Source of the DNA: Verrucomicrobium sp.
Lineage (GTDB): Bacteria > Verrucomicrobiota > Verrucomicrobiia > Methylacidiphilales > GAS474
Assembly (NCBI GenBank): GCA_028283855.1
Contig: JAPWJX010000004.1
Coordinates: 161,394 to 225,393 of the forward strand
Reading direction: 5' to 3'
Length of the DNA: 64,000 nt
The notes under the pieces were generated by a model. That model did not search any database, was not told where the DNA came from, and saw only the letters and a program-made list of their open reading frames with translations. The position numbers and the translations under genes are program-made. Position 1 is the stretch's first letter. Each line of letters begins with the position of its first letter. Of this stretch, positions 18,244 through 57,531 are shown in pieces.

Positions 18244-18259
18244 TAATTCGGCTATTTCC
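18244..18259 (-). promoter_or_regulatory. conserved upstream element copy 1 (GGAAATAGCCGAATTA)
   Basis: Read directly; GCCGAATT ends 18 nt before ATG 18226. Confidence 0.8.
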
Positions 18260-18293
18260 CGGGCAACTTTCCCGGAAAAAGCAGGTTCCAGGC

Positions 18294-20405
18294 CTATTTC
18301 TCGCGCTGGGGCGCCTTTTTCTCCGGGGAAGGGAGGGGGGCGACCGGCGGACGGGTCGCTTCCGCCAAAAGGGAGCGGGCTTGCCGCTTTTCCTGTTCCC
18401 GCTGCGCGCAGGCTTCCACGACGCCCCACATGGTTTCCAGCTCCTTCTTGAAGCCGCCGGAAAGCAGGGGCATGCGGTTGCCCGTCTTCGGGTCCAGGTT
18501 GTGGTCGTCCAGGTGGAAGGAGGGGGCTTCCCGGTCCCGCTTCCACTGGGTGCCGAAGTAGAGGTCGACGACTTTCCTGATATCGTTCCCCAACTCGTGC
18601 GGGGTCAGCTCCGGCAGTTCGGGCCGGAGCCGCTGGAAGATCTCCGCCGGGACCTGCTTGTCCCGGACCAGGGCCCGCTCGATCATGTTGAGGACCCGGT
18701 GGGGCATGAGGTCCTTTTCGTCGGTCTGGTTTTCGACGAGGGGGCGCAGCTCGCCGGAGGGCGGCTTGGCGAAGACCTTTTCCAGGGCGGTGATGGGGCC
18801 GAAGCCGATGGGGCCTTCCTTTTGCAGCCACGGCAGCCAGCTTTCCCGGAGGAATTCCTTGTCGACGCCGGCCAGCGGGGCCAGGCCGCCGGCGGTGTCG
18901 CCGTCCTGGGTGGAGTAGCCGACGGTCGCTTCCGAGCGGTTGGTGGTGACCAGGAGGAGGGCGTTGCGGAGGTTGGCGGCCAGCCAGATGCCGGGGGCGC
19001 GGACGCGGGCCTGGATGTTCTGCCGGGCGTGGTCGTCCCGCTCCCAGTCCAGGGGGCGGCCGGTGATCTGCTCGCCAAGTTTTTCGTAGGCGTCGACGAG
19101 GGGCTGGATGTCGAACTCGTGGTATTCGGCCCCCAGTTCCTTGGAAACGGCGCGGGCCGCCGCGCGGGTTTCGGCGGAGCTGTTTTCCCCGCCCTGGTAG
19201 GCGCAGAGGGTGTGGCGGCTCATGAAGTCGCCGGGCGTCCGGGATTGTTCGATGCCGGGGATGTGGGAGAGCTTTTTCTGGAATCCTGCGACGCCCAGCT
19301 CGTCCATGGCGAATTTCGCCGCGATGCCCTGCAGGGAGAGGACGGCGGCGGAGTCGACGCCGCCGCTTAGGGAGGTGGCGAGGCTGTGGAGCTGCGGGTT
19401 TTTGCGGAAGTAGTCGAAGAGGGCCAGGGCTTCGGCACGGGTGAACTCCTCCTCCTTGTGATGGGGGCTCAATTCCCAGGCCGGAGCGGCGGGCGGCGTG
19501 GCCTTTTCATTCTCCACGGCGGGCCAGGGGAAGGGGATGGCGACGAGGCCCGGCTCCACCGCCTCGAAGCGCGGCTGGAAGCTGGCGGAGGCGCGCTGGG
19601 CGGTGCGGGTGGCGTCGATGTCCAGGACGGCGGGGGTCACCAGCACGTCGCGGAAGGAGAGGCGCGGCCCCTCGGCCATCAGCTCGCCCCGGCTGGCGAT
19701 CAGCGCGCCGCCGTCGTAGATCATGCGGCCCGCCTCGTTGCCCAGCAGGTTGCTGTAGAGGTAGTGGGCGTTGAAGGCGCGGGAGCCTTCCAGGACGATG
19801 CGCTTGCGCACCTCGTGCTTGCCGAAGGAGAAGTGGCTGGCGCTGGAATTGAGGATGAGGTCGGCGCCGCGCTGGGCCAGGGGAGTGCCGGGGCGGTTGG
19901 CCACCCAGGCGTCCTCGCACGTTTCCAGGCCGATGCGGACGCCGCCGATGTCGAAAAGGAGGTCGCCGATGGGGTAGGCCTTCCCGCCCAGGGTGACGGT
20001 CGATTGGACCCCTTCCGGCCATTCCTTGAACCAGCGGGACTCGTAGTGGTTGCCGTCGTTGGCCAGGTGCTGCTTCGGCACGAAGCCCTTGATCTCCCCG
20101 TCGACGCAGACGGCCTGCGCGTTGAAAAGGCCGTTATGGTAGGGCAGGGGAAGGCCCAGGGTGGCGACCATGCCCTTGGTTTCCGGCAGGAGGCGCTGGA
20201 GCATCTCCCAGGCCTGCTGCTGGACGCCGAGGTATTGGAAGGCGTCCTCGCACCCGTAGCCGGTAATGCAGAGTTCCGGCAGGCAGGCGACGGAGGCTTC
20301 CTGGGCGCGGCTTTCCCGCAGGGCCTGGCGGATGCGCGCCTCGTTCCCCTCCCAATCCAGGGGGGTCTGATTCAGGGCGACGGCGGCGGCCTTGACCAAT
20401 TGCAT
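18294..20405 (-). CDS. nadE: glutamine-dependent NAD+ synthetase, divergent, with Pro/Lys-rich tail
   Basis: C-terminal 703 aa of ORF 18294..21545: nitrilase-fold triad (LPE, VPK, TCEDAW), SLSGGVDS PP-loop, QNIQARVR, QTDEKDLMP, QWKR..APSFHLD. Confidence 0.92.
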   Translation of the reverse strand: MQLVKAAAVALNQTPLDWEGNEARIRQALRESRAQEASVACLPELCITGYGCEDAFQYLGVQQQAWEMLQRLLPETKGMVATLGLPLPYHNGLFNAQAVCVDGEIKGFVPKQHLANDGNHYESRWFKEWPEGVQSTVTLGGKAYPIGDLLFDIGGVRIGLETCEDAWVANRPGTPLAQRGADLILNSSASHFSFGKHEVRKRIVLEGSRAFNAHYLYSNLLGNEAGRMIYDGGALIASRGELMAEGPRLSFRDVLVTPAVLDIDATRTAQRASASFQPRFEAVEPGLVAIPFPWPAVENEKATPPAAPAWELSPHHKEEEFTRAEALALFDYFRKNPQLHSLATSLSGGVDSAAVLSLQGIAAKFAMDELGVAGFQKKLSHIPGIEQSRTPGDFMSRHTLCAYQGGENSSAETRAAARAVSKELGAEYHEFDIQPLVDAYEKLGEQITGRPLDWERDDHARQNIQARVRAPGIWLAANLRNALLLVTTNRSEATVGYSTQDGDTAGGLAPLAGVDKEFLRESWLPWLQKEGPIGFGPITALEKVFAKPPSGELRPLVENQTDEKDLMPHRVLNMIERALVRDKQVPAEIFQRLRPELPELTPHELGNDIRKVVDLYFGTQWKRDREAPSFHLDDHNLDPKTGNRMPLLSGGFKKELETMWGVVEACAQREQEKRQARSLLAEATRPPVAPLPSPEKKAPQREK

Positions 20406-20410
20406 GGGGT

Positions 20411-20423
20411 ATAATTCGGCTAA
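20411..20423 (-). promoter_or_regulatory. conserved upstream element copy 2 (TTAGCCGAATTAT)
   Basis: Read directly; GCCGAATT ends 7 nt before nadE ATG 20405. Confidence 0.8.
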
Positions 20424-20495
20424 ATAGAGGGGAAGGGGCCAAAAATATGCTTTTCCCCGGGGCTGGGAGGGGCGATTTTCTTCCCCTTCCCCCCT

Positions 20496-21539
20496 ATGGA
20501 AAACGACCTGCAGAACCTGGAAGCCGAGATCGGCTCCGCCCTGGCCGCCGTGGCCGACACCCCCGCGCTGGAGGCGGTGCGCATCAAGTATTTCGCCAAG
20601 AGCGGCCTGATCACCTCCCTGATGGAGAAGGTGGGCCAGGCGCCGAAGGAGCAGCGCCCCGTCCTGGGCAAGCAGGTCAACGAGTTCAAGGGCCGGGTCA
20701 ACGCCGCTTTCGAGGAGAAGAAGAGCGCCCTGGAGAGCAAGGCGGAGGCCGCGGGCGTCGACGAGACGCTGCCGGGCCGCCCCGTGCCCGCCGGTTCCCT
20801 CCACCCGATCTACGCCGCGCGGGACCGCGCCATCGCCATCTTCCGCCGCCTGGGCTTCTCCCTGGCGGAGGGGCCGGACGTGGAGACGGAGCACTACAAT
20901 TTCGACGCGCTGAACACCCCCGCCGACCACCCGGCGCGGAACGAGGGGGACACCTTCTACCTGGCCGACCAGTCCCTCCGCCTGGCCGCCGACGGCGACC
21001 GGGACCGCCGGGGCCGCCTGCTCCTGCGCACGCAGACCTCCCCCGTCCAGATCCGCGTCCTGGAAAAGGCGACGCCGCCCGTCCGCATCATCGCCCCGGG
21101 CCGCTGCTACCGCCGGGACGAGATCGACGCCACCCACGGCATCGCCTTCCACCAGATGGAGGGCCTCGTCGTCGCGGAGGGGGTCTCCCTGGCGGAGATG
21201 AAGGGGACCATGGAGCTCTTCTTCCGCGAGCTCTTGGGCCACGACCTCAAGTTCCGCTTCCGCCCCCACTTCTTCCCCTTCACCGAGCCGAGCTTCGAGG
21301 TCGACGCCTCCCGCCCGGGCAACCTGGTCAAGGGCAAGGAATGGCTGGAGATCTGCGGCTGCGGCATGGTCCATCCCAAGGTGCTGCAGAACGCGGGCAT
21401 CGACCCGGAGAAATACACCGGCTTCGCCTTCGGCTTCGGCATCGAGCGGATCGCCATGATGCTCCACCACGTGAACGACCTGCGCCTCTTCACGGAGGGC
21501 GACGCCCGCTTCCTGCGCCAACTTTCCCCTGCCGTCTAA
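20496..21539 (+). CDS. pheS: phenylalanine--tRNA ligase alpha subunit
   Basis: NFDALN.P.DHPAR...DTFY, LLRTQTSPVQIR, FHQMEGL, FRPHFFPFTEPS, GFAFGFGIER. Confidence 0.97.
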   Translation: MENDLQNLEAEIGSALAAVADTPALEAVRIKYFAKSGLITSLMEKVGQAPKEQRPVLGKQVNEFKGRVNAAFEEKKSALESKAEAAGVDETLPGRPVPAGSLHPIYAARDRAIAIFRRLGFSLAEGPDVETEHYNFDALNTPADHPARNEGDTFYLADQSLRLAADGDRDRRGRLLLRTQTSPVQIRVLEKATPPVRIIAPGRCYRRDEIDATHGIAFHQMEGLVVAEGVSLAEMKGTMELFFRELLGHDLKFRFRPHFFPFTEPSFEVDASRPGNLVKGKEWLEICGCGMVHPKVLQNAGIDPEKYTGFAFGFGIERIAMMLHHVNDLRLFTEGDARFLRQLSPAV

Positions 21540-21543
21540 GCCC

Positions 21544-24240
21544 ATGAGCGAAACCGCCGATTACAAGTCCACCGTCCTCCTTCCCCGCACCGACTTCCCG
21601 ATGCGGGCGGAGCTGCCCAAGCGGGAGCCGGAAACCCTGGCCCGCTGGCAGCAGGAAAAGCTCTACGAGAAGGTGCTGCAAAACCGCGCCGGGGCGCCGA
21701 AGTTCGTCTTCCACGACGGTCCCCCCTTCGCCAACGGCAACGCCCACATGGGCCACGCGCTGAACAAGACGCTGAAGGACATCGTCGTGAAGTACAAGAC
21801 GATGTCCGGCTTCCAGGTCCCCTACATCCCGGGCTGGGACTGCCACGGCCTCCCCATCGAGCACAAGGTGATGAAGGAGCTGCCGGAGGCCAACCGCACC
21901 CCCGTGCAGATCCGCGAGGCGAGCGAGGCCTACGCGCGGAAATACGTCGCCCTCCAGCGCGGCCAGTTCGAGCGGCTCGGCGTCTTCGCCGATTGGGAAC
22001 ACCCCTACCTGACCCTCAACCCCGGCTACGAGGCGGAGCAGCTCCGCCTCTTCGCCACGCTGGTGGAGAAGGGCCTGGTCTACGAGGGGCTCCGCCCCGT
22101 CCACTGGAGCACCGGCTGCCAGACCGCGCTGGCGGAGGCGGAGATCGAGTACGCCAGCCAGGTCGACCCCGCCGCCTACGTGAAGTTCCCGCTGACGGCG
22201 GAGAGCAAGAAGGCGCTGGGCCTGGAATCTTTCAAGCAGGCCTCCCTCCTCATCTGGACGACGACGCCCTGGACCCTGCCCGCCAACCTGGCCGTGGCCG
22301 TTTCCCCGGAGCTTTCCTACGGACTGTTCGAGAAAGACGGCGAGGGCGTCGTCATCGCCACCGCGCTGCAGGCGCAGATCCCCGACTTCGCGGGTTGGAC
22401 CGCCTCCGCCAAGGCCTGGGCGCGCGGCACGGAGCTGGCGGGGGCCGCGTACCACCATCCCTTCCTGGACCGCACGGGGAAGGTTTATGAGGCCGCCTTC
22501 GTCACCGCCGATTCCGGCACCGGCCTGGTCCACATCGCGCCGGGGCACGGCATGGACGACTATCTCCTGGGCCAGGAGAAGGGGCTGCCCGTCCTCGCCC
22601 CCGTCGACGACCGCGGCTGCCTCACGGCGGAAGCGGGCGTGCCGGAACTGACCGGCGTCTACGTCTTCAAGGCCAACCCGCTGGTCCTGCAGATCCTGCG
22701 GGACAAGGGCCTCCTCCACCACAGCCACGACTACCCGCACGACTATCCCCACTGCTGGCGCTCGAAGACCCCCATCGTCTTCCGCGCGGTGAAGCAGTGG
22801 TTCATCAAGGTCGACGCCTTCCGCCAGCAGGCGCTGGAGGCGATCGACGAGGTGGAGTGGATCCCCAAGTGGGGCATCAACCGGATCAAGGGCGCCGTCC
22901 AGGCCCGCGCCGACTGGTGCATCTCCCGCCAGCGCACCTGGGGCGTGCCGATCCCCGTCTTCTACGACGGGGAGAAGGCGGTCCTCAAGCCGGAGGTGAT
23001 CCGCGCCTTCGCCGCCATCGCCGAGACGCGCGGGACCAACGCCTGGTTTGAAGCCGACGCCGACGCGCTGGCCAAGGAACTGGGCCTGCCCGCCGGGCTG
23101 CGGAAGGGGATCGACACCCTCGACGTCTGGATCGACTCCGGCAGCAGCCACGCCGCCGTCCTGGCGAAGCGCGGGGAATTCCCCGCCGACCTTTACCTGG
23201 AAGGCAGCGACCAGCACCGCGGCTGGTTCCAGTCCTCCCTCCTCCTCTCCGTCGCCACGCGCGGGAAGCCCCCCTACAAGCGGGTGCTGACGAACGGCTT
23301 CGTCGTCGACGTCGACGGCAAGAAGCTCTCCAAGTCGAGCGGCGCGAAGGGGATGGTCGACTACATCGACCAATACGGCGCCGACGTGCTCCGCCTCTGG
23401 GTGGCCAGCACCGACTACCGGGACGACGTGCCGTTCTCCCAGGAGATCTTCACCCGCGTCGCCGACACCTACCGGACGCTGCGCAACACCCTGCGCATCC
23501 TCCTGGGGAACCTCTTCGACTTCGACCCGGCGCGGGACGCCGTGGCGGAAAAGGACCTGACGGAGATCGACCGCTATCTTCTGGCCAAGCTGCGGGAGCT
23601 GGCCAAGGGCTGCGCCGCCGCCTACGAGGCGTATGAGTTCCACCAGGTCTACCACCTGCTCAACCGCTTCTGCGCGGTCGACCTCTCCGCCTTCTACGTC
23701 GACGTTCTCAAGGACCGGATGTATTGCGACGGGGCCGCCTGGCCGACGCGCCGCTCCTCCCAGACCGTCATGCGGGAAGCGGCGGAGACGATCCTGAAGC
23801 TCCTGGCCCCCCTGGCGCCGTTCACGGCGGAAGAGGGGTGGCTGGCCTTGGGCCATAAGGACTCCGTTCACCTCCAATCGATGCCCGCCGCCGATCTCCC
23901 GAGCGCGGGCGCCGACTTCCTGGGCCGCTGGGAGAAATTCCTCTCCCTGCGCGCGCAAGTGAACGAGGCCCTGGAAAAGGCCCGCCAGGCCAAGACGATC
24001 GGCAAGAGCCTGGAGGCCGCCGTCGTCCTGACTGCGCCGGGCGTGGCGGAAGACCGCGCGCTGCTGCGGGAACTCTTCCTGGTCTCCCGCCTCGACGTGC
24101 GGGAAGGGGAGGAAGTCTCCGTGGCCGTCTCCCGCGCGGAGGGGAAGAAGTGCCTCCGCTGCTGGAAGTATGAGGAGGGGATCGGCACCGTCGCCGCCCA
24201 CCCGGAACTCTGCCCCCGCTGCGCAAAGGCCGTGGGCTAG
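21544..24240 (+). CDS. ileS: isoleucine--tRNA ligase (type 1)
   Basis: HDGPPFANG..HMGH, GWDCHGLPIE, WTTTPWTLPAN, DWCISRQR, EGSDQHRGWFQSS, KLSKS, C-terminal CxxC..CxxC. Confidence 0.97.
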   Translation: MSETADYKSTVLLPRTDFPMRAELPKREPETLARWQQEKLYEKVLQNRAGAPKFVFHDGPPFANGNAHMGHALNKTLKDIVVKYKTMSGFQVPYIPGWDCHGLPIEHKVMKELPEANRTPVQIREASEAYARKYVALQRGQFERLGVFADWEHPYLTLNPGYEAEQLRLFATLVEKGLVYEGLRPVHWSTGCQTALAEAEIEYASQVDPAAYVKFPLTAESKKALGLESFKQASLLIWTTTPWTLPANLAVAVSPELSYGLFEKDGEGVVIATALQAQIPDFAGWTASAKAWARGTELAGAAYHHPFLDRTGKVYEAAFVTADSGTGLVHIAPGHGMDDYLLGQEKGLPVLAPVDDRGCLTAEAGVPELTGVYVFKANPLVLQILRDKGLLHHSHDYPHDYPHCWRSKTPIVFRAVKQWFIKVDAFRQQALEAIDEVEWIPKWGINRIKGAVQARADWCISRQRTWGVPIPVFYDGEKAVLKPEVIRAFAAIAETRGTNAWFEADADALAKELGLPAGLRKGIDTLDVWIDSGSSHAAVLAKRGEFPADLYLEGSDQHRGWFQSSLLLSVATRGKPPYKRVLTNGFVVDVDGKKLSKSSGAKGMVDYIDQYGADVLRLWVASTDYRDDVPFSQEIFTRVADTYRTLRNTLRILLGNLFDFDPARDAVAEKDLTEIDRYLLAKLRELAKGCAAAYEAYEFHQVYHLLNRFCAVDLSAFYVDVLKDRMYCDGAAWPTRRSSQTVMREAAETILKLLAPLAPFTAEEGWLALGHKDSVHLQSMPAADLPSAGADFLGRWEKFLSLRAQVNEALEKARQAKTIGKSLEAAVVLTAPGVAEDRALLRELFLVSRLDVREGEEVSVAVSRAEGKKCLRCWKYEEGIGTVAAHPELCPRCAKAVG

Positions 24241-24245
24241 CCTCG

Positions 24246-24258
24246 ATAGCCGAATTAT
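24246..24258 (+). promoter_or_regulatory. conserved upstream element copy 3 (ATAGCCGAATTAT)
   Basis: Read directly; GCCGAATT ends 7 nt before ATG 24264; part of the ATAGCC-N8-GGCTAT inverted repeat. Confidence 0.8.
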
Positions 24259-24263
24259 AGGCT

Positions 24264-25409
24264 ATGGCGTCCCCGCTCTACCCGCAGCCGACCTTCGCCG
24301 CCGATCCCGAGCTGGCGTCGTTCGTCGCGCAGATCCCGAAGACGGAGACGCACCTTCACCTGGAAGGGGCGCTTCCCTTCCTCCTCCTCCAGGAGAAGGA
24401 CCCCAAGAAGCCGCTGCCGGAATTCTGGGCGGCCGACTTCCGCTACCGGGACTTCGGCCACTTCCTGGGGAAGATCCTCGACCCGGAGGCCAACTACTAC
24501 ACCTCCGCCGCCCACTACGGCCGCGCGGCGGGGCTCATCTTCGGCGGGTTGGCGGCGCAGAACGTCCGCTACGTGGAGAGCATCGTCCACCTGCCCACCA
24601 TCGTGGAGGCCGACGGCGGCCCCCTGGCCGTCCTCGACGCGATCCGCCAGGCCGCGGCCGACCACGCCCCGGGCCTCTCCCTCAAGATCAAGGCGGGGAT
24701 GACCCGCGACAACTGGGCCACCCACGCCGGGCCGATCCAGGAAGCCCTGAAATGGAAGGAGCTGGACGGCGTCGGCATCCACGGGACGGAGGAGATCCCC
24801 TTCGAGCCCTGGACGGCGGCGATGTGGCGGCGCTTCCGCGACGCGGGCAAATTCACCGAGGTCCACGCGGGCGAGTTCGGCTCCGTCGAGTCGGTCCGCC
24901 ACGCGGCGACGGTCCTGGGCGTCGACCGGATCGAGCACGGCATCGCCGCCGTGAAGGACCCGGAGCTGATGGCCCTCCTCAAGGAAAAGAAGATCGGCCT
25001 CGACGTCTGCCCGATCAGCAACTGGCGGCTCCGCGCCGTCGAGTCCCTGGCCGCCCATCCCCTGCCGGTCCTGCACCGGGCGGGACTCCTCTGCACCCTC
25101 AGCACGGACGATCCCTATTTCTTCGGCAACACGTTGAGCGAGGAATACGCCCGGGCGGTGAGGGACGTCGGCCTTTCCCGCGCGGAGGTCCTCCAATTGG
25201 CCCGCAACGGCTTTGAGGTGGCCCGCATCCCGGACGCCGCCAAGGCGGAGCCCCTGGCGGAACTCGCCCGGCTGGCGGCGAAGGAGGCGGGGCCCCGCGT
25301 CCCGGCGGGCCGGGAACGGGTGGAGGAGCTTCAGGCCGCCCCGCTCCGTCCGGCGGGGGAAACCGGCCGGAACCTCCCGGACGGGCCTGACTTTTTACGT
25401 ACTCGCTAG
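24264..25409 (+). CDS. adenosine/adenine deaminase family protein (copy 1)
   Basis: PKTETHLHLEG, HAGE, RIEHG, CPISN, STDDP metal and catalytic motifs; about 50 aa C-terminal tail. Confidence 0.9.
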   Translation: MASPLYPQPTFAADPELASFVAQIPKTETHLHLEGALPFLLLQEKDPKKPLPEFWAADFRYRDFGHFLGKILDPEANYYTSAAHYGRAAGLIFGGLAAQNVRYVESIVHLPTIVEADGGPLAVLDAIRQAAADHAPGLSLKIKAGMTRDNWATHAGPIQEALKWKELDGVGIHGTEEIPFEPWTAAMWRRFRDAGKFTEVHAGEFGSVESVRHAATVLGVDRIEHGIAAVKDPELMALLKEKKIGLDVCPISNWRLRAVESLAAHPLPVLHRAGLLCTLSTDDPYFFGNTLSEEYARAVRDVGLSRAEVLQLARNGFEVARIPDAAKAEPLAELARLAAKEAGPRVPAGRERVEELQAAPLRPAGETGRNLPDGPDFLRTR

Positions 25410-25483
25410 ACGCGAGCCGTTTCCAAATCGTCACACTTCCGCAACGGGGGTTTCTTAATTCGAATCTAGGAGTTTCTACTCCT

Positions 25484-25500
25484 GGAAATAGCCGAATTAT
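25484..25500 (+). promoter_or_regulatory. conserved upstream element copy 4 (GGAAATAGCCGAATTAT)
   Basis: Read directly; 16-mer identical to copy 1, same 18-nt gap to ATG 25517. Confidence 0.8.
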
Positions 25501-25516
25501 AAAGTAAGCCCCTCTC

Positions 25517-26752
25517 ATGGAAGCGCGCATCGACCCGGACAAGGCCCCATTCCTGTCGCTTTACCCGCAGCCGCTCTCCCAGCTCCACCCGGAGCTGTCC
25601 CGCTTCGTCCAGTCGCTGCCCAAGACGGAAAGCCACTTCCACCTGGAAGGGGCGCTCCCGCTGCCGCTCCTCCAGCAGCTCGACCTGCCGATCTTCGACG
25701 GCTTCTTCGGCGGCACCCCGCCCTACGCCGACCGGAACTTCCGCTTCCGCAACTTCACCCAGTTCGCCCGCGACTACAAGGAGCACAGCCGCGCCTGGTT
25801 CACCTCCCCGGAGCGCTACGCGGAGGCCGCCGCCATGGTCCTGGCCGACCTGCGGCGGCACAATGTCCGCTACGTGGAGTTGAGCATCGGGATGAAGGAC
25901 GCCAGCTATGACGCGGAGAAGGGCCGCTGCGTCCCGGGCCGCCTGCCCGCCATCATCGACGCCGTCCACGCCGCCGCCAAGGCGATGGAGCCGGACATCA
26001 CCACCCGCATCTACGCCACCATGCGCCGGAAGGACTACGAGGGCTACTCCGAGATCATCGAGGAGACGATCCGCCATCCGAAGCTCTTCGGCATCGACCT
26101 TTCCGGCAGCGAGGCGCGCCCCATCGAGCCCTGGACGTCCGACGTCTGGTCCCGCGCGCGGGACGTCTACGGCAAGAAGCTCAAGGCCCACGCGGGCGAG
26201 TTCCACAAGCGGCCGGAATCGGCCAAGGCCGTCCGCCACGCCATCGAAGAGCTGGGCGTCTGCCAGGTGGAGCACGGCATCGCCGCCGTCCACCACCCGG
26301 AACTGATCGACCTCATCAAGCAGAAGGACATCACCCTGGGCACCTGCCCGCAGAGCAATTACAAGCTGCACGCGGTGAAAACCCTGCACGACCATCCGAT
26401 CAAGGACCTCATGAAGGAAGGCGTCCGCTGCACGGTCAATTCGGACGATCCGTTCTACTTCGGCGGGATCAACGACGTCTACGTCGCCCTGGCCACGCAG
26501 ACCGGCCTTTCCAAGTCCGAGCTGGCCGAGCTGGCGCTCAACGGCTTCCAGGCCGCCCACCTGGCGCCGGAGGAAAAGGCCGCCCCCATGGCCGAGCTGC
26601 GCCGGATCATCGAGCGGGAGAGGCAGGCGGAGGACGCCGCCCTCCAGCGGAAGGCCGCCCTGCAGAACGCGCCCTTCCCCTCCCGCACGCCTGCTTCCGG
26701 CCCCTCCCAGGGTCCCGACCGCCGGGCTTCCCAAGAGCCGACGAAAAGCTAG
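25517..26752 (+). CDS. adenosine/adenine deaminase family protein (copy 2)
   Basis: PKTESHFHLEG, HAGE, VEHG, CPQSN, NSDDP; N- and C-terminal extensions. Confidence 0.9.
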   Translation: MEARIDPDKAPFLSLYPQPLSQLHPELSRFVQSLPKTESHFHLEGALPLPLLQQLDLPIFDGFFGGTPPYADRNFRFRNFTQFARDYKEHSRAWFTSPERYAEAAAMVLADLRRHNVRYVELSIGMKDASYDAEKGRCVPGRLPAIIDAVHAAAKAMEPDITTRIYATMRRKDYEGYSEIIEETIRHPKLFGIDLSGSEARPIEPWTSDVWSRARDVYGKKLKAHAGEFHKRPESAKAVRHAIEELGVCQVEHGIAAVHHPELIDLIKQKDITLGTCPQSNYKLHAVKTLHDHPIKDLMKEGVRCTVNSDDPFYFGGINDVYVALATQTGLSKSELAELALNGFQAAHLAPEEKAAPMAELRRIIERERQAEDAALQRKAALQNAPFPSRTPASGPSQGPDRRASQEPTKS

Positions 26753-26762
26753 CGTGCAGGGC

Positions 26763-27251: not shown

Positions 27252-27259
27252 ATTTTGGA

Positions 27260-28183: not shown

Positions 28184-28239
28184 CTTCGGGCCCAAGGGGT
28201 TAGCGCGGACGCGTTTTCCTGGTTAACGCGTATTAAGGG

Positions 28240-28268: not shown

Positions 28269-28279
28269 AATCGGCCCTA

Positions 28280-31847: not shown

Positions 31848-31853
31848 ATCTCA

Positions 31854-40719: not shown

Positions 40720-40730
40720 CTTCGTCTAGG

Positions 40731-41414
40731 TTACGCCTCCGGCGGGCGGGTGCAAGAGCCTAAGGCGAGGAGGTCTGGGACTTCCAGCACCCGCTTCGGC
40801 GCGCCCTCCCGGGCGGCGCGGATCATGGCCCGGCCCAGCTCCTCGGTGGTGATGACGGCGTTGGGATAGAGGCGCCTGGCCAGGGGGTAGAGGGGCTTGA
40901 AGAAGGGGAGAAGGGCGTTGTAGAGGGGCGTCTACGACCGCTCCCCGTGGGCCGGGTGGATGTAGCCGGGCCGGACCATAAAGGCGCGGGGGAAGAGGCG
41001 CAGCAGGGCATTCTCCGTCTCCCCCTTCACGCGGGCCCACATGGAGCGGCCTTTCTCCGTGCCGTCGGTGTGGGCGCCGGAGACGTAGAGGAAGGCCAGG
41101 CCGGGATTGCGCTCCGCCAGCACGCGGGCGGCGGCCAGGGTCAGATCGCGGGTGACGCGGCGGTAGTCGGCCTCCTTCATCCCGGCGGAGGAGACGCCCA
41201 GGCAGAAGAGGCAGGCGTCAAAACCGTTCAGGGCGTCGGCCACGCCGGAGAAATCGTAGAAATCGGGAGGCACCAGCGAGCGGAGTTTGGGGTCCCGCTG
41301 GGCGGGAACGCTCCGGCCGACGGCGAGCACCTCCGTGACGCCGGGATCGCGGAGGCATTCCCGCAAGACCCCCTGGCCGACCATTCCGGTCGCTCCGAAA
41401 AGAATAATCTTCAT
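40731..41414 (-). pseudogene. NAD(P)-binding Rossmann / epimerase-like protein interrupted by an in-frame TAG at 40932-40934
   Basis: ILFGATGMVG, CLFCLG, W.RVKGE.EN, RPG.I.P.HG.RS*TPLY; the same frame continues 66 codons (...TTEELGRAMI...) to TAA 40731. Confidence 0.8.
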
Positions 41415-41530
41415 ATATCTTAATATTAAGGACGCTACGATTGACCTTGACGGTGCCCCCCGGCAATCTGTACAACCCGCGGACTGCCTTTGTGCAGATG
41501 ATTTATACTCAAGCTCTTTAACCATTTTCT

Positions 41531-42631: not shown

Positions 42632-43460
42632 ATGCACCAGCGCCTGAACGTCCTCCTGCCTGCGGCGGTGGCGCTGCTCATCGCCGTCGTCCTGGTTCTG
42701 CCGCAGAACTGGAAGACGGAGCTGCGCGGCCTGCTGCTGGACGTCTTCTCCCCGGCCATCCGGCTTTACGACCGGGAACGCCACTTCTACGAGCAGGTGC
42801 GCGGCGGCTTCACCTCCCTGGACCACGCGCAGAAGGAAGCGGCGCGCCTGCGGCAGGAGAACGCCGCCCTCCTGACGGAGAACAACGTCCTGCGCGACCT
42901 GCGCGCGGAGAACGGCCGCCTGCGGGAGATGCTCGGCTTCAAGAAGGGCTCGCAATACTCCCTCCTGGCCTGCCGCGTGGTGAGCCGCGATCCCTCCAAC
43001 TGGTGGAACACCGTCATCGTCAACCGCGGCTGGACGGACAACGAGCGCCTCACCTCCGACCTGCCCGTGGTCACCCCGCGCGGCGTGGTGGGGTAAGACC
43101 GGCCTGGTTTCCCGCAACGTGACGGAGGTGATCCTGATGATCAACCAGAACTGCAAGATCTCCGCCACGGTGGAAAATTCCCACAACCAGGGCGTCGTCG
43201 TGGGCATGGGCGCCCCGGCGGAAGGCAGCCCGCGCGTGCGCATGGACTTCCTGCCGCGCAGCGCGCAGCTGGCCATCGGGGAGCGCGTCTTTACCAGCGG
43301 CCTGGGCGGGGTGTTCCCGCCGGGCCTGTTCCTAGGCACCATCATCGAGGCCCCGCCGCTCAACGCGGGGCGCAACTTCGGACTCTACCGGGAGGCGGTC
43401 ATCGACCCCGCGCTCGACCTCACCTCCCTGGACGAGCTCTTCATCATCCTGCCGAACTAG
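42632..43460 (+). pseudogene. mreC: rod shape-determining protein MreC, split by an apparent +1 frameshift at G-run 43090-43093
   Basis: ORF 42632..43096 (TM, coiled coil, ...VVTPRGVVG*) and ORF 43119..43460 (..GE.VFTSGLGGVFP.GL..G) join as VVGKTGLVSRNVTEV if one G is removed. Confidence 0.85.
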
Positions 43461-47055: not shown

Positions 47056-47079
47056 CCCGCACACACAAAGGAAAACCCC

Positions 47080-48768: not shown

Positions 48769-48777
48769 GCGGCGCTC

Positions 48778-50689: not shown

Positions 50690-50696
50690 TCCCCGG

Positions 50697-52883
50697 CTAG
50701 GGATTTTCGATTTTTTCTTCCGGGAAGGGGACGACGGGCGGGATCGAGCTGTTGTCCGGCCGGGGCGGCTTAGGCTTGGTCTGGACGCGGTTGAGCGTCA
50801 CCTGCATGGAGAGGGGCGCGCCGCCCTGCGGAGTCACCGGCAGATAGTAAGTCTCAAAGCCCTGCATCTTTATGGCCACGCTCTGCGCGACGGGCGGCAG
50901 GGAAACCTCCAGCGGCGTGAAGCCGAAGTCTTCCCCGTTGAGCGAGACGACGGCCCCCTGGGGGTGGCTGTCGATCCGTACGCGGGAGAAGCGGAAGTCG
51001 GGGGTGAAGGCCGTCACCTCGTGCACCAGGACTTCCAGGGGCACGCTGTAGGAGCGGTTCCGCTGGCTGAGGCGGACCAGGTAGCGGCCCGGACGGAGGC
51101 GGAGGTTCACGGCGTCCTCCGCCTTGAGGGTGCCGGAGGCGGCCAGATCGGTCCGATCGACGCGGTGCGCCTCGTACCGGTAGCCCTCCTCCGCCGACTG
51201 GAGGCGCAGGAAACCGCCCTCCGGCTTGAGTTCGATGGGCGGCAGGACGAGGTGCTCGGCGGGGTGGAGGCGGACGACCTGGTGGTGGGCCAGGTATTCG
51301 GGCGCGACGACGGTGAGCCGGTAGGGGCCTTCGCGGAGGTGGCGGAAGGTGGCTTTCAGCCCGGTTTCCGAGTCCATCCCCAGCACGATGGTGGGGGAGG
51401 CCTCCCCGGCCAGCAGGGGCTTTACTTCCACGGCGACGGAGCCGTTCTGCACGCGCAGCGCGTCGAAGGCCAGATAGCCCGCCACCGCCGTCATGCCCAG
51501 GAAGCCGGCCACGGAGGCCAGGCTAAGGAGCTGGAGGAAGCGCTCCGCCTTCCGGTGCAGGCGGATCAGCCGCTCCAGCCGCTCGCGCAGGCGGCCCAGC
51601 TCGGCCTCCATGTCCTGGTGGAAGTCGGTGCCGCGGACGGAGGCCAGCAGGCGGGCCTTTTCCGCCAGGGCGGTGGGAACCTTCGTCAAAAGGGCCCGTG
51701 CCGCGCGGGCGGGCGCGAAGCCGAACCAGAACCGCCGGAAAGCCTTTTCCAGGAGCGCCTCCGCCTGGTCCATGGGGTGTCCCAGGCGCTGGTCGATGTC
51801 GGTGAGCTCGTTCCGCCAGCGGGCCGCCTCGCGCGCGGGAGCCTCGTAGTCGAGGTCGGCGAAGACCGGCTTGAGCGGGGCGGCGGTTTCCTGCGCCTTC
51901 CGGTAATTGCCTTCCCGGGCCAGGGTGATGGCCTTGTCCAGGGTGCGGAGGTGCTTGGAATAGGTTTCCAGCCAGCGCTTGCAGCGGGCCTCGTCCTGCT
52001 TGAGGGCGGCCAGCCGGGCGCGGCGCAGGGAGCTGGAGGCGTCGTCGTCCAGGTAGCGGAAAATCTCCGGCAGGTCGAGGCGGTGGAGGAGGTGGTCGGG
52101 ATGAAGCAGGGTGGCGAAGCCGTAGAGTTCCGGCTGGAGGTCCTTTCCGCTGCGCCACGAGCCGGCGGGAAGGCCCAGCCGCAGCTCGCGGACGTGGTGG
52201 GAGATCTCCGCGATTTCCGAGCGGATCTGCTCGTGGAGGGCTTCCAGCCCGGCTTGGGAGAGGGCGCCCGGCTCCGGGTTTTCCAGGGCGGCGCGCCAGG
52301 CGGGCGCCTCGGAAGTCTCCGTGTGGACGGCGGCGGCGACAGTGCCGATCCTCTCCACCGTCTGGCCGAAGTGGTCGAGCGGATCGTCGACCAGCGCGCT
52401 GGCGGGCAGGTTGGCGTTGGCGAAGTGGTCCAGCTCCTTCCCCAGCTCAGCCAGGGCGCCCAGGACGGGGGTCTTCTCCGCCTCCATGAGGCCCTCGGCG
52501 CGGAGGAGGTAGGCCACCTTGGCCTGGAGGACCTGAAGGTGGAAGGTCTGCTCTTCCAGGTTGGTGCCCCAGGCGCTCTTGATGCGGAGCCATTCGATGG
52601 AGGCGTCCTCCACCAGGTCGGCCAGGCTCTGCCGGTATTTTTCCAGCACCTTGTCCTGCTCGTAGCCGGAGCGGTGCAGGGCGTTGTTGATTTGGTGGAT
52701 CTTGGTCTTTTGGGCGATGCTGGCGCCCTGGACGCGCAGGGAGGCCAGCTCGGCCGTCAGCCCGGCGATGCGGTCCCGCACCTCCGTGGCCCATTGGTGG
52801 AGGCCCGCCAGCTCCTTGTAGCCGGGAAAGATATTCTCCAGGTCGGGCTTGGCGTTCTTGGCCGGGGCGGGCTTGGGCTCCAC
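50697..52883 (-). CDS. bitopic membrane protein: long helical N-terminal region, one TM, C-terminal beta/PEGA domains
   Basis: Helical coiled-coil-like first 450 aa, hydrophobic segment [24 protein letters not shown]-like [19 protein letters not shown]. Confidence 0.7.
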
Positions 52884-52911
52884 TGCCCGGCAGTATGATG
52901 GCTTGCCGGGA

Positions 52912-53656
52912 TCAGGGCAATATCAAGTAAGCCAGGGAACAGCCGGCGGCGACGGGGACGGCGTCGGTCCGCAGGGCCAGGGAGGCGGCGGTGGTCCCCG
53001 CCGCGACGACGCGCGCGCCGAAGGCGCTCTCCGCCGCCGTCGGCGTAAGGAGGGTGAAGAGCGCCCCGCGCGGCGCGCCGGGCAGGTGCAGGGAGGCGAG
53101 GTCGATCGCGTAGTCGCTCTGCCCCACGACGAGGGGAAGGATGCCGGTCAGGCCGGTGGTGAGGAGGGAGGCGGCGGTCGGGTAGGCGGGGTTGCCCTCC
53201 GTGGGCAGGCCTTCGTCGTCCTTGATCACGTCGTTGTAGATGACGACGGAGAAAGTCCGGGTGCTCGTCTCGTAGCCGCCCGGGGTGATCCAGGCGATTT
53301 CCCCCATGAGGGTGACCTGGGCCAGGTCGCCGCCCGCGGGATTAAGCAGGGCGTTGAGGGGGGAGGTGTTGAAGCTGGGCTGGAGGGCGTAGGCGGTGGC
53401 GGGCGCGGCGGGCGTGGCCCAGACGTCGCAAAAGACGACGAAGTCCCCGTCGTATTGCCCCTGCTGCTTGAGGCCGAATTTGAACGTGGTGCCGGAAGGG
53501 AGCGTCACCGGCGTGTAGCCGTTGCTCCCCAGTTGCTGAAAGGTCACCTGCAGGGGGGCGACGTCCCCCCGTTTGAAGGAAAGGGTGGTGACGGGCGCCG
53601 CTGTTGCTGGAGCCGGCCACCAGCTGGGCCCGGTCTAGGTCGATGTAGAGGTTCAT
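52912..53656 (-). pseudogene. orphan phage tail/baseplate-like protein with apparent +1 frameshift near 53600
   Basis: ORF from ATG 53656 (MNLYIDLDRAQLVAG) and ORF ending 52912 (APVTTLSFKRGD..LQVTF...) differ by one base; span 745 nt = 248 codons +1. Phage resemblance is from recollection only. Confidence 0.6.
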
Positions 53657-53751
53657 GGGGGTCTGGCGCGGCATCCTACCCGGGAGCGGGGCGGCGCGTC
53701 TTGGACGGGGGGAACGGAGGGCAGGGAAGGGGTGCTTGACCGCCCGGCCGG

Positions 53752-54249
53752 ATGGCGCAGCATGGGAAAGACGATGAACGCGTTTTTCCCGGAGGCCGGG
53801 CGCTGAAAGCCCTGCGCATCGGCGTCATCGCCGACACCCACGGACGGATCCATCCGCGCCTGGAGGCTCTTTTCCGGGACGTCGACGAAATCTGGCACCT
53901 GGGCGACGTCTGCGAGGAGGCGGTCCTCGATTTTCTCCGCGGCCTTTGCCCCCGCCTGACCGTGGTGCTGGGGAATAACGACTTTTCCTTCTCCGCCCCG
54001 CTGACGCTCGATTTGGAGCGGGAAGGGGAGCGCTTCCACCTGGTCCACATCCCGCCGCGCTCCTTTCCCGCGCGGGAGGGGTGGTTCCTCCACGGACACA
54101 CCCATGTCCCCCGCGATGAACGAATCGGCGCGTTGCGTGTCTTTAATCCCGGCAGCGCGGGTTTGGCGAACAAGGGAGCTCCCTTGCACGTCGGCTTCCT
54201 GGAAAAGGAGCCGGGGAAGCCTTTCTCCGCGCGGCTGGAACCCCTCTAA
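53752..54249 (+). CDS. metallophosphoesterase (YfcE/MJ0936 family)
   Basis: IADTHG, HLGD, LGNND, HGHTH, FNPGS; true start may be downstream. Confidence 0.88.
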   Translation: MAQHGKDDERVFPGGRALKALRIGVIADTHGRIHPRLEALFRDVDEIWHLGDVCEEAVLDFLRGLCPRLTVVLGNNDFSFSAPLTLDLEREGERFHLVHIPPRSFPAREGWFLHGHTHVPRDERIGALRVFNPGSAGLANKGAPLHVGFLEKEPGKPFSARLEPL

Positions 54250-54297
54250 CCTTGCAGTCCCCCTCATTCTGAACCATCCTGGAAGCCCTTTCCCCCT

Positions 54298-55896
54298 ATG
54301 AAGCGCACCCGCCTTTCCGCCTGCGTCCTCCTCCTTTCCCTTAGCCTGCCGGTCCTCGGCTCCGCCGCCACACCCTGGTGGAAATGGGGCGCCTCCCCGA
54401 CAAACGCCCCGGCCGCTGAGGCGGAAAAGTCCGCCCCCGCCTCCCTGGGCGAGGCCAAGCCGGAAACCGCTCCCGCCCCCGGCGGCGGGCCGGCCATGGT
54501 GACCAGCTTCGCCCCCATTGTGAAGAAGGTGGCGCCCAGCGTCGTCACCGTCTTCACCACCAAGAAGGTGAAGGAGCAGGACGTCCGCAACCCCTTCATG
54601 GGCGATCCCTTCTTCCAGCGCTTCTTCGGCAACATGCCGGGGATGCCGGGCAACGGCAACGGCGGCGGCGCTCCGGCGAAACCCCGCTTCCAGGAGCAGC
54701 AGGGGCTGGGCTCCGGCGTCATCGTCTCCGCCGACGGCTACATCCTGACCAACGTCCACGTCGTCGACGTGGCGGACGAGATCAAGGTCCGCATCGGCAA
54801 CGAGAAGAAGGACTACGCCGCCAAGGTCATCGGCAAGGACCCGCTCTCCGACATCGCCCTCATCAAAATCACTGCCACCGGCCTGACTGCCATCCCCCTG
54901 GCCGATTCCAGCAAGGTGGAAGTGGGAGACGTCGTCCTGGCCCTGGGCAACCCCTTCGCCCTCGGCCAGACCGTCACCATGGGCATCGTCAGCGCGCTGG
55001 ACCGCACGCCGGACGAGCTGGGCGCGGGCACCCTCGACCAGTTCATCCAGACCGACGCGGCGATCAACCCCGGCAACTCCGGCGGCCCCCTCGTCGACAC
55101 CGCGGGCCGCATGATCGGAATCAACAGCGCCATCTACACCCGCAGCGGCGGCAACATGGGCATCGGCTTCGCCATTCCCAGCAACATGGCCCGCCACGTC
55201 ATGGAGAGCCTGCTCAAGCAGGGCCGCGTCATCCGCGGCTTCCTGGGCGTCAGCGCCAACGCCCTGACCCCGGACCTGGTGAAGAAATTCAGCCTGCCGG
55301 ACGACAACGGCGTCCTCGTCGCCCAGGTGGAGTCGAAGTCGGCCGCGGAAGCCGCGGGCGTCCAGGTCGGCGACGTCATCACCGAGTTCAACGGCAAGAA
55401 GATCTCCGACTACCACGACCTGCGCACCGCCGTCACGGAGACCGCCCCCGGCAAGAAAGTCCGCCTGGCCCTGATCCGCAACGGGCATCCGAAGACCCTG
55501 GACGTCACCCTCAAGGAGATGCCCGCCGCCGCGTCCAAGCCGGAGGCGGACGACGCCGCCCAGGACGAGCCGGCGGAGCCCGCCACGGAAAAGCTCCTGC
55601 CCGGCGTGCAGATCGCCGACCTGAACGACGCGGGCCGCCACCAGTTCGACGCCATCCAATATCCCGCCGACCTGAAGGGCGCCCTGGTCGTCGACGTGCA
55701 GCAGGACTCCCCCGCCGCCAAGCCCGGGGCCGCCGGCCTCCAGCCGGGCGACGTCATCCTGGAGGTGGAGCACAAGGAGGTCCACTCCGCGAAGGAAGCG
55801 GTCCTCGCCGCCCATAAGGCCAAGGGCGGCCTCCTCCTGCGCGTCTGGACGCGCGGCAATCCCCGCTACCTGGTCATCCAGAACAGCGACCAATGA
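54298..55896 (+). CDS. degP: Do/DegP (HtrA) serine protease with two PDZ domains
   Basis: Signal peptide, GSGVI, TNVHVV, DIALIK, QTDAAINPGNSGGPL. Confidence 0.93.
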   Translation: MKRTRLSACVLLLSLSLPVLGSAATPWWKWGASPTNAPAAEAEKSAPASLGEAKPETAPAPGGGPAMVTSFAPIVKKVAPSVVTVFTTKKVKEQDVRNPFMGDPFFQRFFGNMPGMPGNGNGGGAPAKPRFQEQQGLGSGVIVSADGYILTNVHVVDVADEIKVRIGNEKKDYAAKVIGKDPLSDIALIKITATGLTAIPLADSSKVEVGDVVLALGNPFALGQTVTMGIVSALDRTPDELGAGTLDQFIQTDAAINPGNSGGPLVDTAGRMIGINSAIYTRSGGNMGIGFAIPSNMARHVMESLLKQGRVIRGFLGVSANALTPDLVKKFSLPDDNGVLVAQVESKSAAEAAGVQVGDVITEFNGKKISDYHDLRTAVTETAPGKKVRLALIRNGHPKTLDVTLKEMPAAASKPEADDAAQDEPAEPATEKLLPGVQIADLNDAGRHQFDAIQYPADLKGALVVDVQQDSPAAKPGAAGLQPGDVILEVEHKEVHSAKEAVLAAHKAKGGLLLRVWTRGNPRYLVIQNSDQ

Positions 55897-57518
55897 GCGA
55901 TACGCTTTCCACGCCCCCCGCCTTCGTCCCCGGCCCCACGCCGGAGGAGAAACTGAAGATGGAAAAGGACGGCCTGGACGTCATCCACGACCTCCACCGC
56001 TACGCCCACACGGGCTTCGCCTCCATCACGGAGGACGATTTCTCCCGCTTCAAGTGGTACGGCTTCTACCGCCAGAAGCCGAAGGAAAGCGGCTACTTCA
56101 TGCTCCGGCTGCGGCTGCCCGGCGGGCGGCTGACCCCGGAGCAGGCGGAGGCCGTCGCCTCCGTCGCCCAGGACTTCGCCCACGGCTTTTGCGACGTCAC
56201 CACCCGGCAGACCTTCCAGTTCCACTGGCTCACCATCGAGCAGGCGCCGGAAGTCTTCGCCCGGCTGGAGTCCGCCGGGGTCTACACCAGCGGCGCCTGC
56301 GGCGACATCGCCCGCAACGTCGTCGGCTGCCCCGTGGCCGGGTGCGACGGGGAGGAGATCCTCGACGCCACCCCGCAGCTGGAGGCGGTCAACGCCCACC
56401 TCTTCAACAACAAGGAATTCTCCAACCTGCCCCGGAAGTACAAGATCAGCGTCTCCGGCTGCCGCATCCACTGCGCCCAGCCGGACATCAACGACCTGGG
56501 CTTCTTCGGCCTGGAGCGGGGAGGGGAGGCGGGCTTCGGCCTGAAGATCGGCGGCGGCCTTTCCTCCGCCCCCCACCTGGCGCAGGTCCTGCCCGTCTTC
56601 CTCCGGCCGGAGGAGGTCCTGCCCATGGCCCACTACGCATCGGTCCTCTACCGGGACTTCGGCTACCGGGAAAAGCGCAACCGCGCCCGGCTCAAGTTCC
56701 TCGTCGCCGACTGGGGCGCGGAAAAGGTCCTGGCCAAGATCGAGGAGCTGGCGGGCCGCCGCTTCGAGCGGTACGAGGGGTTCCAATTCCCGACCGATCC
56801 GGAGACCGACCACCTGGGCGTCCGCCCGCAGAAGCAGGCGGGGCTCCACTACGTCGGCGTCTGCTTCGCCGGGGGGCGCGTCCGCGCCCATCAGCTGCGG
56901 GAATTGGCGGAGCTTTCCCGCCGCTTCGCCTCGCCCGGCCAGGCCCGCCTGGGGGCGACGAACAAACAGAACATCATCCTCTTCAACATCCCGGAGGCGA
57001 ACGTCGCCGCGCTCAAGGCGGAGCTCGACGCGCGGGAGCTGGTCTGGAACCCGACGGTCTTCCGCTCCGGCTGCGTCTCCTGCACCGGCATCGAGTTCTG
57101 CAACCTGGCCATCGCGGAGACAAAGAACCGGATGATCTCCCTCGTCGGCCAGCTGGAGGAGGAGTGCGCGGGCTACCGGGACAAGATCCGCATCCATTTC
57201 AGCGGCTGCCCCAGCTCCTGCGGCCAGCACCAGATCGCCGACATCGGCTTCCGCGGCGGCATGACGAAGGTCAACGGCGTCTCCACCGAGTGTTTCGACA
57301 TGTTCCTGGGCGGCAAGCTGGGGAGCGAGGCCCGCTTCAACGAGCTGGTCCGCGGTAAAATCCCCGCCGCCGACATCCACAAGGTCGTCGGCCAGACCCT
57401 CCGCTACTACCAGGCGAATCGCCAGGGGACGGAGACCTTCGCCGACTTTTCCCGCCGTTTGGGGAAGGATGCCATGAAGACGGCCCTGGCCCCGGAAAAT
57501 CCGGCCGCTCCCGCGTAA
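55893..57518 (+). CDS. ferredoxin-dependent nitrite/sulfite reductase (siroheme, 4Fe-4S)
   Basis: DVTTRQ.FQFH, CGD..RNV.GCP, LPRKYKI..SGC, CTG.EFC, SGCPSSCGQH; substrate not determinable. Confidence 0.92.
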   Translation: MSDTLSTPPAFVPGPTPEEKLKMEKDGLDVIHDLHRYAHTGFASITEDDFSRFKWYGFYRQKPKESGYFMLRLRLPGGRLTPEQAEAVASVAQDFAHGFCDVTTRQTFQFHWLTIEQAPEVFARLESAGVYTSGACGDIARNVVGCPVAGCDGEEILDATPQLEAVNAHLFNNKEFSNLPRKYKISVSGCRIHCAQPDINDLGFFGLERGGEAGFGLKIGGGLSSAPHLAQVLPVFLRPEEVLPMAHYASVLYRDFGYREKRNRARLKFLVADWGAEKVLAKIEELAGRRFERYEGFQFPTDPETDHLGVRPQKQAGLHYVGVCFAGGRVRAHQLRELAELSRRFASPGQARLGATNKQNIILFNIPEANVAALKAELDARELVWNPTVFRSGCVSCTGIEFCNLAIAETKNRMISLVGQLEEECAGYRDKIRIHFSGCPSSCGQHQIADIGFRGGMTKVNGVSTECFDMFLGGKLGSEARFNELVRGKIPAADIHKVVGQTLRYYQANRQGTETFADFSRRLGKDAMKTALAPENPAAPA

Positions 57519-57531
57519 AATAGCCGAATTA
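57518..57531 (+). promoter_or_regulatory. conserved upstream element copy 5 (AAATAGCCGAATTA)
   Basis: Read directly; abuts the reductase stop; followed by AGGAG and ATG 57540 (9-nt gap). Confidence 0.8.

Follow-up and report, generated by a model that had tools for sequence, protein, structure and literature searches.

The region considered here is a 64-kb stretch of contig JAPWJX010000004.1 (assembly GCA_028283855.1; hereafter the window, meaning the whole 64,000 nucleotides analysed), and the element in question is an 11-nucleotide (nt) sequence, TAGCCGAATTA, five exact copies of which stand in front of a dispersed set of genes. The source is an uncultured soil- or plant-associated Verrucomicrobium of the GAS474/Methylacidiphilales lineage: in protein searches the window lies nearest to 'Verrucomicrobium sp. 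GAS474' and to metagenome-assembled genomes of Candidatus Methylacidiphilales, its isoleucyl-tRNA synthetase (IleRS) is 72-74% identical to those of the closest relatives, and its DNA is present in a plant-metagenome run; the word depth of its contig is ~350 in a plant-associated sample. GC content ranges from 0.63 to 0.72 per 2 kb (~0.68 overall), and the gene model of this analysis assigns 90.8% of the window to coding sequence, leaving ~9% non-coding. Outside the genes described below, the content is housekeeping in character (aminoacyl-tRNA synthetases, infC-rpmI-rplT, acc, sdh, the isoprenoid pathway, mreBCD-pbp2-rodA, RNase G, etc.).

The coordinates and strands of the five copies given in a preliminary description of this DNA were recovered by an exact scan of the window, and all five copies are, as had been described, intergenic and in the same orientation as the next open reading frame (ORF). 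Copy 1 (18244..18254, minus strand) lies 17 nt before the ATG of c1 (17939..18226, minus), a 95-amino-acid (aa) orphan ORF with a GC content at third codon positions (GC3) of 0.85, for which no homologue was found among 1.84 billion representative proteins; a FlgM-like anti-sigma factor was ruled out for want of any similarity. Copy 2 (20412..20422, minus) sits in the 90-bp divergent nadE/pheS intergenic region, 6 nt before the ATG of nadE (18294..20405, minus), which encodes a 703-aa glutamine-dependent NAD synthetase and forms an opposite-strand insert between rplT and pheS. Copy 3 (24247..24257, plus) begins 6 nt after the ileS stop and ends 6 nt before the ATG of ADA1 (24264..25409, plus; 381 aa), and copy 4 (25489..25499, plus) ends 17 nt before that of ADA2 (25517..26752, plus; 411 aa), both adenosine-deaminase-family genes (39% identity to each other) inserted between ileS and lspA. 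Copy 5 (57521..57531, plus) lies 2 nt after the stop of a sulfite/nitrite reductase gene and 8 nt before the ATG of c5 (57540..57752, plus), a 70-aa orphan and the first of three unannotated ORFs (c5; 57737-58378; 58384-58584). Annotation agrees with the targets first named (a nadE-like gene, ADA1, ADA2 and two orphan loci), and tandem genes do each keep a copy of their own.

The motif is non-random, and it keeps a fixed position and orientation with respect to start codons. Not one copy arose in 100 dinucleotide-preserving shuffles, which bears out the earlier view, reached with a GC content guessed at ~70%, that the copies far exceed chance. From the end of the 11-mer to the ATG the distances are 17, 6, 6, 17, and 8 nt for copies 1-5, and from the end of its octamer GCCGAATT they are the 18, 7, 7, 18, and 9 nt already reported; the 16-mer noted in two of the copies is GGAAATAGCCGAATTA, common to copies 1 and 4, and the seventh base 3' of the motif is a purine in every copy. 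The 11-mer carries 22 bits of information, is non-palindromic, and contains no internal repeat. A halo of degenerate copies is absent from the window, where only four further sites have two or fewer mismatches (3.7 expected) and these look chance-like. No further copy occurs in the 5.8 kb of extra contig beyond the window ends, and a scan of genome contigs for TAGCCGAATTA-N0-30-ATG gave chance matches alone, mostly in-frame V-A-E-L coding in low-GC genomes. A literature search for the motif returned only polymerase chain reaction primers, and one for a verrucomicrobial study of transcription start sites (TSSs) found none.

Start codons in the window share a wider context into which the motif must be set. 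A Shine-Dalgarno core (GGAG/GAGG/AGGA, at -18 to -4) precedes only 6 of 51 window genes, and as a rule start codons follow C/T-rich runs (ccccATG, cctccATG) and a patch rich in A/U, the latter also in front of operon-internal genes, which suggests that initiation in this genome is generally independent of Shine-Dalgarno pairing. A/T-rich hexamers likewise occur 5-8 nt before the ATG of other window genes, namely accD, a gene for an M3 oligoendopeptidase, and one with a Lon-N domain. The M3 gene had been suspected of having a degenerate copy; what stands is the A/T half of the motif, AATTAT (13562..13567, minus; 4 nt before the ATG), within an upstream element that reads AATTATccccATG and shares only AATTAT and CCCCATG with the motif copies, the rest of the motif being missing.

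To place the tagged genes in their evolutionary setting, the window was compared with the loci around ileS from GAS474 and three metagenomic relatives (family level), whose common order is accA-thrS-infC-rpmI-rplT-(~200-aa membrane protein)-pheS-ileS-lspA-nadA-(749 aa)-ugd-purA-uppS-cdsA-dxr-rseP. The window keeps this order, at 60-86% protein identity, save for three differences. First, c1 and nadE, on the opposite strand, fill the slot of the relatives' ~200-aa membrane-protein gene, of which no homologue was found in the window; second, the interval from the ileS stop to the lspA start is occupied by ADA1 and ADA2, an insert whose limits are fixed to within 6 nt at its left edge and 1-11 nt at its right; and third, the M3 peptidase gene stands between an Rce1-like gene and accA, an insertion relative to GAS474. 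The exact 11-mer is thus found on four of the five inserted genes (c1, nadE, ADA1, and ADA2), with a partial copy on the fifth (M3), and on none of ~17 syntenic genes (p ~7e-4 in a Fisher-type calculation of our own over the block comparable with loci L122, L123, and L125). Gene order shows c1, nadE, ADA1, and ADA2 to be lineage-specific insertions, and within the comparable block the motif is tied exclusively to inserted genes, the M3 insert having a partial copy only. The association covers these five genes, the insertion status of c5 lying outside the synteny comparison; with that restriction, the original proposal that the motif marks accessory genes is sustained. GAS474 has an insertion of its own in the conserved block, an opposite-strand methyl-accepting chemotaxis gene between rpmI and rplT (L122 5837-7450).

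The companion claim that no housekeeping gene is tagged survives for the ~17 syntenic genes and gives way at nadE, which has a core function, though this copy looks like a xenolog, with best homologues of only 53-58% identity drawn from mixed taxa (Chthoniobacterales, Planctomycetes, and other groups). Relative to its homologues, the NadE protein has ~40 additional aa. Of the PADLOC CARF-ADA model, ADA1 and ADA2 match the deaminase domain (E = 4e-23 and 2e-20) and lack the CARF domain, and their substrate is uncertain because they score well under the NCBIfam adenosine-deaminase equivalog cut-offs. The orphan ORFs gave no significant match to Pfam, NCBIfam, PHROGs, or PADLOC, the sole library match among them being a marginal one to CARF in the 213-aa ORF of the c5 group (E = 0.0045). 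c5 and the 66-aa ORF (58384-58584) have in common an N-terminal FRxEMxxMG segment (41% identity over 29 aa), and the N-terminus of c5 is paralogous to the 66-aa ORF; c5 also shares an (M/V)AFPLS start with the 213-aa ORF.

A congener diverged by ~8-10% in DNA (run X3) has the same insertions as the window, and in it three of the four testable copies (2, 3, and 5) are unchanged; copy 4 lies outside the coverage of the congener contigs. Copy 2 is identical and falls in a low-divergence block (20340-20466) with 3 differences in 127 nt, as against ~10% in the adjacent nadE coding sequence, and copy 3 is likewise identical; all three unchanged copies sit in conserved footprints. Copy 5 is contained in a stretch of 59 nt (57513-57571) with no difference, which takes in the reductase stop, the whole motif, and c5 from its ATG through nt 32, with flanks that are ~10-20% diverged (19 differences in 178 nt over the copy-5 region as a whole). 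At the site of copy 1 the congener reads TAGCCAAATCTA, a degenerate form, and keeps the GAAAGTT of a -35-like box considered below; no alignment of the downstream sequence with c1 reaches 80%, and the slot after nadE is therefore taken to be variable. Judged by this pattern of substitution, the motif is under purifying selection in the congener, and the element is functional and no recent relic. The congener also has small indels at 57755, 57781, and 58473, in the ORFs after copy 5.

Given that in the comparable block the motif occurs on inserted genes only and at their 5' edges, it could be thought to serve gene insertion, as a junction or as a recombination core, by a mechanism like that of cassettes or phage morons, possibly with no role in expression, having come in with each inserted gene or served as a crossover site; we regard this as very improbable. 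Such a core would suit copy 3, which starts the ADA1-ADA2 insert 6 nt after the ileS stop, an insert that fits the interval to the lspA start within 1-11 nt, and the slot after nadE, whose occupant differs in the congener while a motif-like sequence is still there; identity of up to 16 nt between copies is also suggestive of copy-and-paste. Short direct repeats do flank the inserts (GCTAGC for ADA1-ADA2; the 13-mer GGCGCCTTTTTCT for c1), but they are no longer than chance allows in 10 kb, neither array has a motif or half-site at its distal end, attC-like imperfect palindromes are lacking save for a weak one before copy 4, and no integrase, transposase, or recombinase is present among the Pfam-annotated ORFs of the window. 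The nearest nadE homologues, moreover, have no motif, and the insertions predate the congener split yet the motif has stayed exact, which argues for ongoing function. Integron/attC recombination and target-site duplication were rejected, the flanking repeats (GCTAGC, GGCGCCTTTTTCT, and GGGGAAGGGG-like runs) being at chance level or common in the window; of integron features, one weak inverted pair stands before copy 4, while ADA2 and c1 have none behind them. Copy 4 has, 20 nt upstream, a degenerate copy in inverted orientation, TAGATTCGAATTA (25456..25468, minus), and the two bracket a small hairpin, AGGAGtttctaCTCCT. As in integron arrays and phage morons, genes that are tandem, individually inserted, and in part orphans are each headed by a short conserved sequence, and the occupant of one slot differs between close relatives; the window array differs in having large metabolic enzymes, in having no attC, integrase, or terminal site, and in that the motif, at the 5' end, looks like an expression signal. 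Should the motif belong to an insertion mechanism after all, gene capture would have a signal of a new kind in it.

The reading that we tentatively favour, at a little under an even chance, is that TAGCCGAATTA is a compact promoter of sigma28-like type or one served by another alternative sigma factor. A single non-palindromic, strictly oriented 11-mer appears better suited to a sigma factor than to a dimeric regulator. As an orientation-specific -10-type element, it would start transcription at or near the ATG, and one sigma factor of the sigma28/group-3 kind, or a paralogue, would read it largely without a -35 box. If transcription starts ~7 nt after the last A of TAGCCGAATTA, the mRNAs of nadE and ADA1 are predicted to be leaderless, with the A of the ATG as their first base, that of c5 would have a 2-nt leader, and those of c1 and ADA2 would begin with an A and have 11-nt leaders; in this way each gene inserted in the conserved operon block would be supplied with its own transcription start. 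Because they lie on the strand opposite to the surrounding rplT/pheS-ileS genes, nadE and c1 must have a promoter of their own, and the place of the motif within the nadE/pheS divergent region would suit a start on the ATG of nadE. Between ADA1 and copy 4, 38 nt ahead of the latter, is a weak terminator-like hairpin; canonical sigma70 two-hexamer promoters were sought and not found in the 18 kb scanned. We infer the promoter role, the identity of the sigma factor, the TSS position, and the co-regulation of the tagged genes from sequence only. The reverse complement of copies 2-4, TATAATTCGGCTA, presents a perfect TATAAT hexamer (20409-20414, plus; 24256-24261, minus; 25498-25503, minus); since that of copy 2 is oriented toward pheS, the A/T patch there could be a bidirectional -10 for nadE and pheS.

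The case for sigma28 itself draws on comparison with well-studied promoters and with the relatives of this bacterium. The sigma28 consensus is TAAAGTTT-n11-GCCGATAA, from whose octamer the TSS is 6 bp away, and E. coli sigma28 requires both boxes (PMC2859248); in Chlamydia, a member of the same PVC (Planctomycetes-Verrucomicrobia-Chlamydiae) superphylum, sigma28 has the non-flagellar targets hctB and tsp (PMC12282069). The sequence upstream of flgM reads TAAACTTTgaacccctttctGCCGAAGTAacccctATG in GAS474 and TAAACTTAgtccccttttctGCCGAAGAcgaagttATG in a metagenomic relative with 79% FlgM identity, such that these two family-level relatives share the pattern TAAACTT(T/A)-N12-GCCGAAG(T/A)-N7-ATG, in which the boxes are kept while the spacer and the 7-nt discriminator vary. 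flgM is a classic sigma28 target, and the relatives' upstream element is a sigma28-type promoter; it has the same octamer-N7-ATG geometry as copies 2 and 3 and a GCCGAA core in its octamer. The resemblance to a sigma28 -10 box that was first proposed for the motif thereby gains an indirect footing, in an octamer at the same distance from the ATG, and loses ground in that the match to GCCGATAA is just 5/8. The sole sigma28-like -35 box is GAAAGTTG (18264..18271, minus), which matches TAAAGTTT at 6/8 and lies 11 nt upstream of the GCCGAATT of copy 1, exactly as had been observed; copy 4 reaches 5/8 at the wrong spacing (N15) and copies 2, 3, and 5 at most 3/8, in keeping with the statement that the other four copies lack this box. 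In common with sigma28 promoters, the motif has a GCCGA core, a composite 'GC + core' -10 layout, and an octamer ~6-7 nt from the start point (here the ATG), but it differs in its extra invariant bases (TA upstream and A downstream, giving the 11-mer), and the tagged genes are metabolic or orphan, not motility genes.

Despite these likenesses, several observations weigh against a sigma28-like promoter. The octamer GCCGAATT agrees with GCCGATAA at 5/8 positions ungapped, or 7/8 with a one-base gap, and is unlike the octamer at the lineage's own flgM (GCCGAAG). Copies 2-5 have no sigma28 -35 box and are GC-rich at that place, though canonical sigma28 cannot do without the box (PMC2859248). The annotated genes of the window include none for a sigma factor or for flagella (fliA included), nor is there a fliA or flagellar gene in the 5.8 kb beyond it by the Pfam labels of called genes. 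It is unusual for a promoter class to have no degenerate copies beyond chance, the tagged genes are without an obvious common function, and no RNA run among those searched for the locus sequence holds it. Finally, the AATTA half might be a translation signal and not a -10 box, because A/U-rich patches precede many starts and Shine-Dalgarno sequences are rare.

An ADA-family gene of GAS474 is divergently paired with flgM (L121 9556-11050), and in the locus L130 an unannotated 346-aa ORF of similar size holds the same divergent position and is taken by assumption as an ADA homologue. The 11-mer is absent upstream of these ADA orthologues in the relatives; a different element, TAAAAAGCGAG, is kept in both upstream regions instead.

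A bolder form of the promoter reading, which we hold to be distinctly improbable, is that the 11-mer is a self-contained 'expression tag', a minimal portable promoter that travels with genes newly inserted in the chromosome of this verrucomicrobial genus or is installed on them and is read by a dedicated, -35-independent factor of the sigma28 family. If this were true, acquired genes would form a separately switchable layer of the genome, resembling morons or integrons in function and relying on a different, undescribed mechanism.

The motif may, though we consider it unlikely, be the operator of a sequence-specific and probably monomeric transcription factor, overlying a generic A/T-rich -10 or initiation region. 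The small regulon so defined would comprise acquired nucleotide-metabolism genes (NAD synthetase and two adenine/adenosine deaminase-family enzymes) together with small unknown proteins. Identity at 11/11 positions in five copies with no degenerate halo would suit a DNA-binding protein of high specificity, as would conservation in the congener; nadE and the ADA genes both act on adenine nucleotides, and the AATTA half may be a generic start-proximal signal, as at the M3 gene. An operator, on the other hand, would need neither the strict co-orientation nor the narrow spacing to the ATG, the motif has no palindrome or internal repeat, unlike most bacterial operators, and no regulator gene linked to any copy is found among the annotated window genes. 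The NAD genes provide a specific comparison, as NrtR binds a 21-bp palindrome of the TTAGTGT-N7-ACACTAA type upstream of such genes. The nearest nadE homologues lie in pncB-macro-prs-nadE operons (continuing with -nadK or with -nrtR-pncA) that have no 11-mer; at pncB, upstream of these operons, stands a palindromic NrtR-type box, TTAGTGTACTACTAACACTAA or TAGTGTAATAGCAACACTAA (L133 1040-1095; L134 1040-1098), which the motif does not resemble. Membership of an NrtR/NAD regulon was rejected, given that the 11-mer is unrelated, non-palindromic, and missing from the nadA and nadC of the window.

A signal acting on RNA or on the elongation complex, in transcripts starting upstream, is a rather unlikely account of the motif and would take one of several forms. 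It might enhance translation initiation, or act as a landing pad, on genes that lack a Shine-Dalgarno sequence; it might be a processing site of the RNase E/G type (GA|AUU); or it might, like ops, load a NusG paralogue by which the transcription of acquired genes is coupled to their translation. Copies 3 and 5 sit so close after a co-directional stop (6 and 2 nt), with no terminator between, that a read-through RNA would contain the motif, and the scarcity of Shine-Dalgarno cores (6/51) and the A/U-rich patches before many starts, operon-internal ones included, would accord with an initiation signal. No RNA fold is common to the five copies, however, the z-scores being ~0 or positive, and a shared RNA structure was rejected on that ground; Rfam 15 at its gathering score gives no match in the whole window, in which tRNA and tmRNA searches were negative as well, the AUG follows the motif at anything from 6 to 17 nt, and no pairing partner was identified for the invariant UAGCCG half. 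The ops element, GGCGGTAGnnTG, is an exact, oriented 12-mer in front of horizontally acquired operons. The likeness to this RfaH target consists in an exact, oriented element of ~12 nt before horizontally acquired genes without a Shine-Dalgarno sequence; in sequence the two differ (only TAGC is common to both), ops is part of a long leader that is transcribed from a promoter further upstream, and no NusG paralogue is among the annotated window genes.

A further known system to compare with the favoured promoter reading is that of high-GC bacteria (Mycobacterium, Deinococcus), in which leaderless mRNAs arise from -10-only promoters with TANNNT ~7 nt before the start codon. The likeness is that of an A/T-rich element 5-8 nt before the ATG, with neither a -35 box nor a Shine-Dalgarno sequence, and accD (TATATAgagccATG) and M3 (AATTATccccATG) of the window look alike in this respect. 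Measured against a -10-like A/T hexamer with A in second and T in sixth position, 5-8 nt from the start codon, the hexamer AATTAT stands 5 nt before the ATG in copies 2 and 3 and AATTAA stands at 7 nt in copy 5; in copies 1 and 4 (AATTAC and AATTAT) it is 16 nt away. The motif differs from such promoters in not being TANNNT, in having 11 invariant nt rather than a loose hexamer, and in two copies that would give 11-nt leaders. Because Shine-Dalgarno sequences are scarce throughout the genome, their absence was no longer counted as evidence that the mRNAs are leaderless.

The element is a lineage-specific, start-proximal promoter-like signal, a known kind of element in a new variant. Its unusual trait is that it marks the inserted genes of the comparable block (four of five exactly, M3 partially), so that a cleanly defined, selected 22-bit cis-element separates them from the vertically inherited operon backbone. 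To our knowledge, almost nothing is known of promoters, sigma specificity, or translation signals in free-living Verrucomicrobia. A -35-independent sigma28-like promoter, if that is what the motif is, would extend the known recognition modes of that family and would show how acquired genes are wired in a host with little use of Shine-Dalgarno sequences and probably many leaderless mRNAs. Whether promoter or insertion signal, a single 11-mer offers a precise probe for genome-wide and transcriptomic tests.

Several further features of the window were noted. A perfect bidirectional intrinsic terminator, aaaaaGGCGCCTCCCgtaaGGGAGGCGCCttttt, lies at 17878-17923 and is common to the convergent rplT and c1 genes; the 13-mer GGCGCCTTTTTCT in it has a second occurrence within the 3' end of nadE (18310-18322). 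By the GC3 criterion no gene is called with confidence in five stretches (1-887, 7340-8032, 10101-10828, 40720-41530, and 53548-54297), some of which contain ORFs of weaker codon bias, e.g., 40932-41528 (minus) and 53740-54249 (plus). Lastly, mreC appears to be split into two ORFs (42632-43096 and 43119-43460, within 42632-43460) that both match Pfam MreC, an arrangement that could be genuine or could stem from an assembly error, a frameshift, or a stop.

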